NCBI GenBank assembly: GCA_965197425.1
Contig: CBDANC010000014.1
Coordinates: 288,001-352,000 of the forward strand
Direction of reading: 5' to 3'
Length of the DNA stretch: 64,000 nt
From: Bdellovibrionales bacterium
Lineage (GTDB): Bacteria > Bdellovibrionota > Bdellovibrionia > Bdellovibrionales > JAUICD01
A model generated the notes under the pieces. That model was given only the letters and a program-made list of their open reading frames with translations, was not told the DNA's origin and did not search any database. Of this stretch, positions 14,901-16,278 are shown piece after piece (the stretch's first letter is position 1; each line of letters opens with the position of its first letter). A program made the translations under genes and the position numbers.

Positions 14901-16088
14901 ATGCTTAATTGTGCTGGCCAATCCCCTTTCTTCTAACTTGTTATAGACAAATGGTTTAAATAACTCCAAAGCCATCTTCTTTGGTATTCCACATTGATGA
15001 AGCCTTAAGTGTGGCCCCACCACAATTACAGATCTACCAGAGTAATCCACACGTTTACCCAATAGATTTTGTCTAAACCTTCCTTGTTTACCTTTAAGTG
15101 CATCACTCAAAGAACGAAGCGGTCTTTTGTTAGGCCCTGTAAATACCTTGCCTCTTCTTCCGTTATCAAATAGAGCATCCACAGATTCCTGCAACATTCG
15201 CTTTTCATTTCTTATTATAATTTCAGGTGCAGAAAGCTCTTTGAGTCTTTTAAGTCTGTTGTTTCTATTGATAACTCTTCTATAAAGATCATTTAGATCA
15301 GATGTTGCAAACCTGCCTCCATCCAAAGGCACAAGAGGTCTTAGATCAGGAGGGATTACAGGTACGACATCCAAGATCATCCACTCTGGTTTATTAGGAG
15401 AGCCTTTAAAAGCATCCACTACTTTAAGTCTTTTGGTTATTTTTTTTATCGTAGCTTCAGATTTACTTTCCTTAATATCTATTCTTAATTTTTTTGATAA
15501 AAATTCTAGATCAATTTTACTCAACAATTCTTTTATAGCTTCTCCACCCATTTTGGCCTTAAAGCCAGGGCCATGTTCAGACATTGCATCTTGTAACTCT
15601 TCTTCTGACAGCAGTTGTCCTTCTGTTAGATTGGTTTCCGTAGGATCAACCACTACATAGGACTCACAATACAAAACTCTCTCCACATCTTTTAGACTCA
15701 TGTCTAACAAGTTGCCTATCCTACTAGGTAGAGATCTTAAAAACCAAATGTGTGCAACAGGAGAAGCTAATTCTATATGCCCCATTCGCTCTCTACGAAC
15801 TTTACTCTGTGTTACTTCAACACCACATTTTTCACACACAATTCCACGAAACTTCATTCTTTTATATTTGCCACAAATACATTCGTAATCCCTGGTGGGA
15901 CCAAATATTTTTGCACAAAACAAACCTTCTCTCTCCGGCTTAAATGTTCTGTAGTTTATGGTTTCAGGTTTTTTTACTTCACCAAAAGACCACTTGCGAA
16001 TTACTTCAGGAGGTGCCAAAGACACTCTAACAGCATTGAACGCTAAGGGATCTTTTGGTTTATCAAAAAAGTTCAATAGGTCTTTCAT
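11997..16088 (-). CDS. rpoC: RNA polymerase beta' subunit
   Basis: [14 protein letters not shown] catalytic motif; 1363 aa. Confidence 0.99.
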
Positions 16089-16278
16089 AAAGGTCTTCCT
16101 AATGAGGCTAAAAACAAGTGGACTTGTTCACTTTGGTTCAATTGGCTCATGGGATAAATCTTCATATTATCCAATTGAAATAACCTCCCTGCGGTCGGTT
16201 TTTTTGCCGAGTGGTTGCCCAGCTCTATACGTGTCATCAAATTCATCTCCATAAAGGTTTTCCTAATGAGGCTAAAAG
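16088..16278 (+). repeat. Modular hairpin repeat between rpoB and rpoC
   Basis: aaggt(c/t)ttcctaatgaggctaaaa at both ends; central module shared with 21815-21890, 25030-25110, 25270-25370, 48275-48345 and 59165-59262. Confidence 0.92.

Follow-up and report, generated by a model that had tools for sequence, protein, structure and literature searches.

The 3′ end of an intergenic repeat family in this uncultured, low-GC bacterium probably acts as the Shine-Dalgarno (SD) site of about 25 genes, where it stands in place of the native upstream sequence found in a sister species; judging from sequence comparison, we put the probability of this reading at roughly two in three. These genes start 0–4 nt after the shared tail, ...(T)TAGGAAGACCTT, and include rpoC, rpsD, rpsH, rplV, rpmC, smc, cmk, rsmE, thiI, acnA, pckA, sufS, sdhB, fsa, pilB, tatD, cysK and rnhB as well as genes for a CzcA-type pump, a DnaQ-type exonuclease and methylmalonyl-CoA mutase. 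The window, the whole 64-kb stretch of DNA that was analysed, is part of a host genome (G000) of 1.6 Mb in 15 contigs. Both were compared with related genomes, above all with a member of the same genus (G001).

The repeat family is modular. A full unit consists of an A head, an optional B module of 66 nt that is absent from many copies, and a C hairpin followed by the tail; D and E bodies are also found. Only the last ∼12 nt, the tail (consensus ...[T]TAGGAAGACCTT[T]), is common to all body types. In the window the 23-nt tail occurs 8 times at ≤3 mismatches, with no match in 100 shuffles. Using the rpoB-rpoC spacer as an nhmmer query, 108 hits with fixed 3′ ends and variable 5′ extents were obtained in the host genome. 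A 30-nt HMM of the tail gave 114 tails at E ≤ 0.01; this is the HMM set referred to below, while the motif set consists of 306 sites that carry the 10-nt core with ≤1 mismatch. About 33 of the 114 tails continue into another head, such that units are stacked head to tail. The tail variant containing AGGA is spread over at least six hairpin subfamilies.

The family is amplified in the host species alone. Among the 31 related genomes searched it is present in one, the host genome itself, and in none of the other 30. The exact sequence GGAAGACCTT occurs 145 times in the host genome (6 for a reversed-pattern control) and 4 times in G001 (8 for the control), the latter being chance level. A 19-nt tail pattern gave 3 single matches in unrelated taxa among wider genome contigs, and a 21-nt B-module pattern gave 2 matches in unrelated sequence; both results were taken as chance. 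A 23-nt pattern of tail plus ATG had no match in metagenome contigs, and a scan of the window with Rfam at the gathering threshold returned 3 tRNAs and nothing else. Within crude open reading frames (ORFs) lie 11 of the 114 tails, 9 of them in the first 52 codons and in the orientation of the ORF and the other 2 near its 3′ end. For these 9 the crude start has likely been called too far upstream, as shown for thiI and rplV. An in-frame insertion within genes like that of the Rickettsia RPE was rejected by the placement of these 11 tails.

Other repeated sequences were observed in the window. An unrelated repeat at 1735–1944, between two minus-strand ORFs, has three tandem 70-nt copies, of which two are identical and one has 66% identity. 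A direct repeat pair of 296 nt (22808–23103 and 58130–58425) is 77% identical over a distance of 35 kb, and one of its copies adjoins the tRNA gene at 23155–23227. The ORF at 9523–10908 (461 aa) is made of periodic repeats of ∼99 nt (33 aa) that are ankyrin-like by eye. On the minus strand at 26871–28469, three paralogous stretches ∼600–850 nt apart resemble a tandem array of paralogous genes whose 5′ ends are alike.

The earlier note had described four start junctions in the window, at rpoC, tatD, cysK (a CBS/CysK gene) and rnhB, with (A)GGA 7–8 nt upstream of each start. All four are present when each is read on the strand of its gene, and the position of (A)GGA is borne out by the sequence. 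Between the rpoB stop and the rpoC ATG lie 192 nt, which are repeat throughout. Read on the minus strand, the rpoC start codon (16086..16088; ORF 11997–16088, which matches TIGR02386 and has an N-terminus common to G001–G004) is adjoined by a C module (16089..16133) composed of the hairpin GTGAACAAGTCCAC, a T-run and the tail. The junction is ...TTTTTAGCCTCATTAGGAAGACCTTT-ATG with the start at 16088; it matches the tail pattern with 0 mismatches, and its AGGA starts at −12 from the ATG. Upstream follow the 66-nt B module (16134..16199, minus strand) and the A head, ATGGAGATGAATTTGATGAC...GAGCTGGGCAACC...AAAAAA (16200..16252, minus strand). Joints that skip 66–68 nt at this B module were seen in all 4 runs compared. 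A second copy of the tail, without a body (TTTTAGCCTCATTAGGAAAACCTTT; 16253..16277, minus strand), lies 3 nt past the rpoB stop. This stop is TGA (16281..16283, minus strand); G001 has TAA, and strain X5 has TAG, which is fused with the tail there. The rpoB-rpoC spacer has an RNA fold z-score of −0.68; no terminator-like site was found in it, nor was a sigma-70-like promoter found on the gene strand by a consensus scan of this one locus.

At tatD, a truncated A head with hairpin and tail (8434..8514, plus strand) fills the entire spacer, which in G001 is 11 nt of native sequence. The junction is ...GCCTCATTCGGAAGATCTTT-ATG (start 8515), and the stop TGA of the gene upstream falls inside the head of the repeat. 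Upstream of cysK several units are stacked (48168..48564, minus strand), the last of which is of D type, with the tail TTAGGAAAACCTT touching the ATG; the junction reads ...GGGTTAGGAAAACCTT-ATG on the minus strand with the start at 48167. Here the body is different and the tail divergent, and the tail HMM missed it. The rnhB start (...TCCTCATTCGGAAGACTTT-GTG, start 59283) is adjoined by a 136-nt unit with tail-like sequence at both ends (59147..59282, plus strand), with further repeat units upstream at 59020–59146.

It had also been noted that the same repeat end overlaps or abuts the stop codons of ald and cysK. Both contacts exist, and the one at ald is as described: the tail end of a unit at 25248..25388 (plus strand) overlaps by one base the ald stop (TAA, 25388–25390, minus strand). 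The cysK stop (47229) adjoins only a 21-nt reverse remnant of a second, D-type tail, which points at the stop (47210..47230, plus strand) and is one of 9 matches to the reverse-tail pattern genome-wide. G001 lacks the AACACTGAT part of this remnant. Compared with its G001 counterpart, the product of ald (25388–26515) lacks 11 residues at the C-terminus, and its end coincides exactly with the reversed repeat tail. It seems that the insertion replaced the 3′ end and the stop of this gene.

The earlier note had allowed that the true starts of these four genes might lie elsewhere. The four start codons are the true ones, as NCBIfam profiles begin at residues 1–20 of each protein. The rpoC N-terminus, (M/V/L)(K/R)..., aligns codon for codon in 4 of 4 relatives (G001–G004), and the tatD and cysK N-termini align codon for codon with those of G001 and are of equal length. 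In rnhB there is no alternative canonical start ahead of the conserved GVDEAGRG motif. In the rnhB frame of G001 (G001:C1:196380-196650) neither ATG, GTG nor TTG occurs from the in-frame stop upstream as far as GVDEAGRG; a non-canonical start or a sequencing error in that genome is possible. Of all 25 abutting genes, 22 match NCBIfam, mostly with the N-terminus at or near the start of the profile. Residue 1 of S4, Fsa, CzcA and SdhB aligns with profile position 1, residue 2 of SMC with position 1, residue 2 of S8 with position 5, and residue 5 of both L22 and L29 with position 1. PckA and the N-terminal domain of methylmalonyl-CoA mutase begin at profile positions 24–30; these N-termini may be shortened, or simply variable. 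Three abutting ORFs are without a family match (C15:374715, C14:149138 and C15:435939).

The distance from repeat ends to start and stop codons was measured across the whole host genome, and the ends proved strongly enriched at both. Compared with random intergenic positions, the start of a gene lies at offset 0–3 from 10 of the 114 tails where 0.97 are expected (P = 6e-8), and the stop of a convergent gene is adjoined by 8 of the 114 where 0.87 are expected (P = 3e-6); gene calls in this permutation test were crude, being the longest ORFs of ≥120 aa. For ORFs of ≥100 aa, 14 tails have a start at offsets −2 to +3, as against a single tail with one at +4 to +23. In the motif set, 33 of the 306 sites have a start codon within 0–4 nt that opens a frame of ≥60 aa. 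Of these, we took 25 for real genes and discarded 8 as ORFs that are repeat-borne or due to chance (C12:162009, C13:85343, C13:194696, C13:288628, C14:148496, C14:327846, C15:20634 and C15:91257). The site C13:13225 was dropped from its coordinates, since its ATG, 3 nt past the tail, and the long ORF are in different frames.

Between co-directional genes, the tail has the same orientation as the genes in 30 regions and the opposite orientation in 22, which is no bias (P = 0.33). Consequently, the element is tolerated both ways. Pointing toward the 5′ end of a gene it adjoins the start, and pointing toward the 3′ end its TAA-AGG adjoins or forms the stop. The supply of an SD, by which the earlier note explained that the element is tolerated, is therefore not a general condition for its tolerance.

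Synteny between the host genome and G001 is kept, so the junctions of G001 serve as empty sites. In the comparison of rpoB-rpoC spacers in relatives, suggested at the outset, the G001 spacer is TAA, 27 nt with GGAG, and ATG, with no repeat. In the same genome cysK has a native AGGAAAG as SD and a TTG start. The ribosomal junctions of G001 are S11-GTAAA-GTG S4, S14 TGATG S8, L16 TAA-AGTTT-ATG L29 and S19 TAATG L22; rsmE and cmk are joined by TAG-T-ATG, and sdhA and sdhB by TAG-AGGTTGAT-TTG. In the host genome these same junctions hold 13–285 nt of repeat from stop to start, and the native SD is gone. The ribosomal-protein cluster (G000:C14:158000-169000) has at least four repeat-filled junctions, S11-S4 (∼278 nt), S14-S8 (∼170 nt), L16-L29 (∼285 nt) and S19-L22 (∼116 nt), whose counterparts in G001 are 0–17 nt or overlapping. 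The tail, rather than native sequence, forms the translation-initiation region of the four genes named by the earlier note and of about 20 more; at the junctions compared, G001 has other, native SDs. The three genes with a non-ATG start in G001 (S4, cysK and sdhB) all have ATG behind the tail in the host genome. Cmk is 2 residues shorter in the host genome, with an apparent decayed old start left of the insert. From these changes of GTG or TTG to ATG and the shorter Cmk, it is likely that the tail often supplies the ATG as well.

The 16S rRNA of the host has a canonical 3′ end, ...CACCTCCTTT. Genome-wide, the tetramers GGAG, GAGG and AGGA peak at −12 to −10, and the AGGA of the tail starts at −12. 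With the anti-SD, the AGGA tail is predicted to form a duplex of −4.2 kcal/mol and the CGGA form one of −3.5, compared with a genome median of −3.7 and −1.5 for random sequence. The strength of the tail as an SD is only about average, and 4 of the 25 abutting genes carry the weaker CGGA form. In the HMM set, 10 of the 12 tails that abut a gene carry the AGGA variant, compared with 25 of 101 others (Fisher P = 1.2e-4); in the motif set the corresponding figures are 16 of 25 and 35 of 281. This preference holds across several hairpin subfamilies. We regard the enrichment as the best in silico sign that the tail is under selection as an SD, although it could in part reflect subfamily history rather than selection. 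Of the earlier statement that the element brings its own SD, the part that stands is AGGA or GGA at the position preferred in the genome, at junctions where G001 has other, native SDs; that this sequence works as an SD is what we would predict from its position and pairing.

We propose the following course of events. The genome is compact, with operon junctions of 0–30 nt or overlapping, and an insertion at such a junction would part a gene from an SD located in or just after the upstream gene. The copies that survived would be only those whose tail placed AGGA 8–10 nt before the start; reversed copies would survive only where their TAA-AGG restored a stop. Once the tail had become the sole SD it could not be deleted, so that bodies would be gained and lost and solo tails left behind.

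The proposal that the element lands at TA or TTA gained no support: the base after CCTT is T in 54 tails, G in 40, A in 20 and C in none, and the following base is A in 70 of 114. In comparison with G001, native spacers are replaced whole rather than split, so no target duplication can be defined. An inverted-repeat MITE was rejected, as only 6 outward-facing tail pairs within 600 nt were found among 171 tails, and a two-ended inverted-repeat element was rejected in general, as each copy has a single, constant tail end and the 5′ extent varies from copy to copy. The Y1 (HUH) transposase, PF01797, had no match in the host genome or G001, while controls matched in 6 of 14 genomes; an IS200/IS605-derived PATE or a REP/RAYT system was set aside for this reason. 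No match to rve or IS110 enzymes was obtained in the host genome. No autonomous insertion sequence (IS) with the ends of the family was found in this metagenome-assembled genome, which is 99% complete, though IS copies may be unassembled. The sole DDE_Tnp_1 (IS4-like) open frame of the host genome (C11:5856-7508, 551 codons) has no tail-like ends. This ORF is absent from G001 and has three near-identical copies in G002.

Public contigs from strains ∼97% identical to the host differ at the rpoB-rpoC spacer, which holds a full element, a shorter element or a solo tail of 12 nt. An X3 contig has 92 nt where the host genome has 170. In one X5 contig, the end of rpoB and the start of rpoC have 12 letters between them, CAA-TAG-GAAGACCTTATT-ATG, where TAG is the rpoB stop. 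The sdhA-sdhB junction of the host genome is a solo tail of the same design. The X5 form can be derived from that of the host by one deletion between AT microhomologies, though the reverse order is conceivable. As the X5 spacer has the tail motif even without a body, arrival and deletion of a body look alike at rpoC taken alone. At the ribosomal-protein cluster, one unit seems to be missing ahead of rpsD in X4 and X5, and the body ahead of rplV seems to be another one in X3; these observations are tentative, as joints in the contigs aligned there are dominated by cross-matches between repeat copies. We infer that bodies are gained or lost while the tail stays, as would be expected were the tail the only SD of the gene. 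The suggestion that the element may be hard to lose gains from the survival of solo tails without a body (sdhA-sdhB in the host, rpoB-rpoC in X5) and otherwise follows by inference.

The position of the tails could also result from targeting rather than selection, which we regard as unlikely. Units would then recombine into a tail-like core (GGAAGACCTT-ATG) already present at SD-start regions, and the SD would be older than the insertion. The X5 spacer has the core without a body, units are stacked behind existing tails, and all three tails of the L16-L29 spacer share the rare GGAAGGCCTT variant. In addition, direct repeats of tail plus ATG, 13–16 nt long, flank the units upstream of cmk, rpsD and rpoC, and X4 and X5 contain a joint at which 13 letters fit both sides, which suggests the gain or loss of one unit before rpsD. 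AAGGTCTT-like landing sites have also been proposed. However, the 4 exact cores of G001 are at chance level, and the core is absent from all 10 native junctions inspected in that genome, so that the first units to arrive cannot have relied on a core already in place. Nor was a recombinase or transposase partner found in the host genome.

Another explanation is that a frame running from the ATG of the head through the unit stops on the start of the gene (ATGA, TAATG), and that termination-reinitiation, not the tail as an SD, starts translation. In 13 of 17 gene-abutting copies there is an upstream ORF of 24–86 codons that ends −4 to +8 from the start (ATGA, TAATG or TGATG), and most TATG cases have ATGA after the tail. 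At abutting tails this frame stays open for a median of 43 codons, compared with 16 at others (P = 0.005), a set that includes chance motif sites, and frames 1 and 2 show no such excess. In contrast, only 21 of 66 tail-to-tail units have an open frame 0 (10 for frame 1 and 18 for frame 2), which is thus not a family-wide property, and only 8 of 37 units with a start codon in the head reach the next tail. The peptide is not conserved, and the reading frame differs between A1 and A2 heads. On balance such coupling is improbable as the general explanation, yet at operon junctions the units may assist by coupling translation. Passive crowding, in which ends meet codon boundaries because spacers are tiny, the tail has no role and the genes are translated without an SD, agrees with a genome ∼85% under crude ORFs, with G001 junctions of 0–27 nt and with an SD duplex of −4.4 kcal/mol or better at only ∼41% of crude gene starts, but is very unlikely in view of the sharp spike of offsets, the enrichment of the AGGA variant at abutting copies, abutment also where the upstream region in G001 is long (∼260 nt before rsmE, for example) and the persistence of solo tails.

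Our preferred reading, that the tail serves as the SD of the genes it abuts, could be carried further, and we do so with considerable doubt. The tail might be a 16-nt portable intercistronic junction (TAG stop, AGGAAG as SD, spacer and ATG), and whole units might be mobile mini-cistrons that extend from the ATG of the head to the next start codon. A selfish repeat could by this means colonise coupled essential operons (rpoBC and the S10/spc/alpha ribosomal clusters) without polarity; the host would come to depend on the tail, and the repeat could not be fully removed.

The spacers of co-transcribed genes are commonly held to be avoided by small bacterial repeats. The closest precedent, by a likeness that is functional only, is REP2 of Neisseria meningitidis. 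[quoted passage not shown] REP2 also carries a promoter and heads regulated genes, according to the same passages. As with REP2, the RBS and ATG of the repeat are here fused to downstream ORFs, about 25 in number. Unlike REP2, the present family has no promoter detected at the one locus scanned and sits inside essential operons (rpoBC and ribosomal-protein clusters); it is modular, with several bodies on a ∼12-nt tail, it caps stops when reversed, and it occurs as solo tails.

The BOX elements of Streptococcus pneumoniae (boxA-boxB(n)-boxC) are modular and species-restricted and can create starts or small ORFs at operon edges; the ORFs they form are without good SDs, and spacers between co-transcribed genes are judged less repeat-tolerant than regions downstream of coding sequences, in the part of Croucher 2011 (PMC3049150) that treats these points. 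The family described here likewise has a head, an optional middle module and a tail and is restricted to one species. It differs in that ∼25 junctions, many within operons, use the tail as a start region. QMITE1 and QMITE2 of Coxiella burnetii have TIRs, overlap the last 1–50 nt of functional genes and sometimes provide the C-terminus and stop; in the account of these elements by Wachter 2018 (PMC5896051), as far as it bears on gene ends, the effects concern 3′ ends only, and start codons are not mentioned. Our repeat overlaps gene 3′ ends in a similar manner, but 5′ ends are affected too and the 171 tails form only the 6 inverted pairs. Overlapping stop/start junctions (ATGA, TGATG) serve translational coupling, as Huber 2019 (PMC6728339) states. 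The tail plus gene start recreates such a junction, either as ...TTA-TGA over ATG or as TAATG, except that the upstream ‘cistron’ here would be a repeat-borne ORF whose sequence is not conserved.

For annotation, these results mean that start codons beside such repeats are real, and that repeat-borne ORFs can mislead gene callers. About 2% of the genes in this 1.6-Mb genome have no upstream sequence other than the tail of one repeat family, and the products of these genes include RNA polymerase beta′, SMC, SdhB and four ribosomal proteins. If the tail works as an SD, it would be a natural, compact and portable RBS or intercistronic junction, and the family would be a selfish element that rewrites translation-initiation signals genome-wide and makes itself undeletable in doing so.
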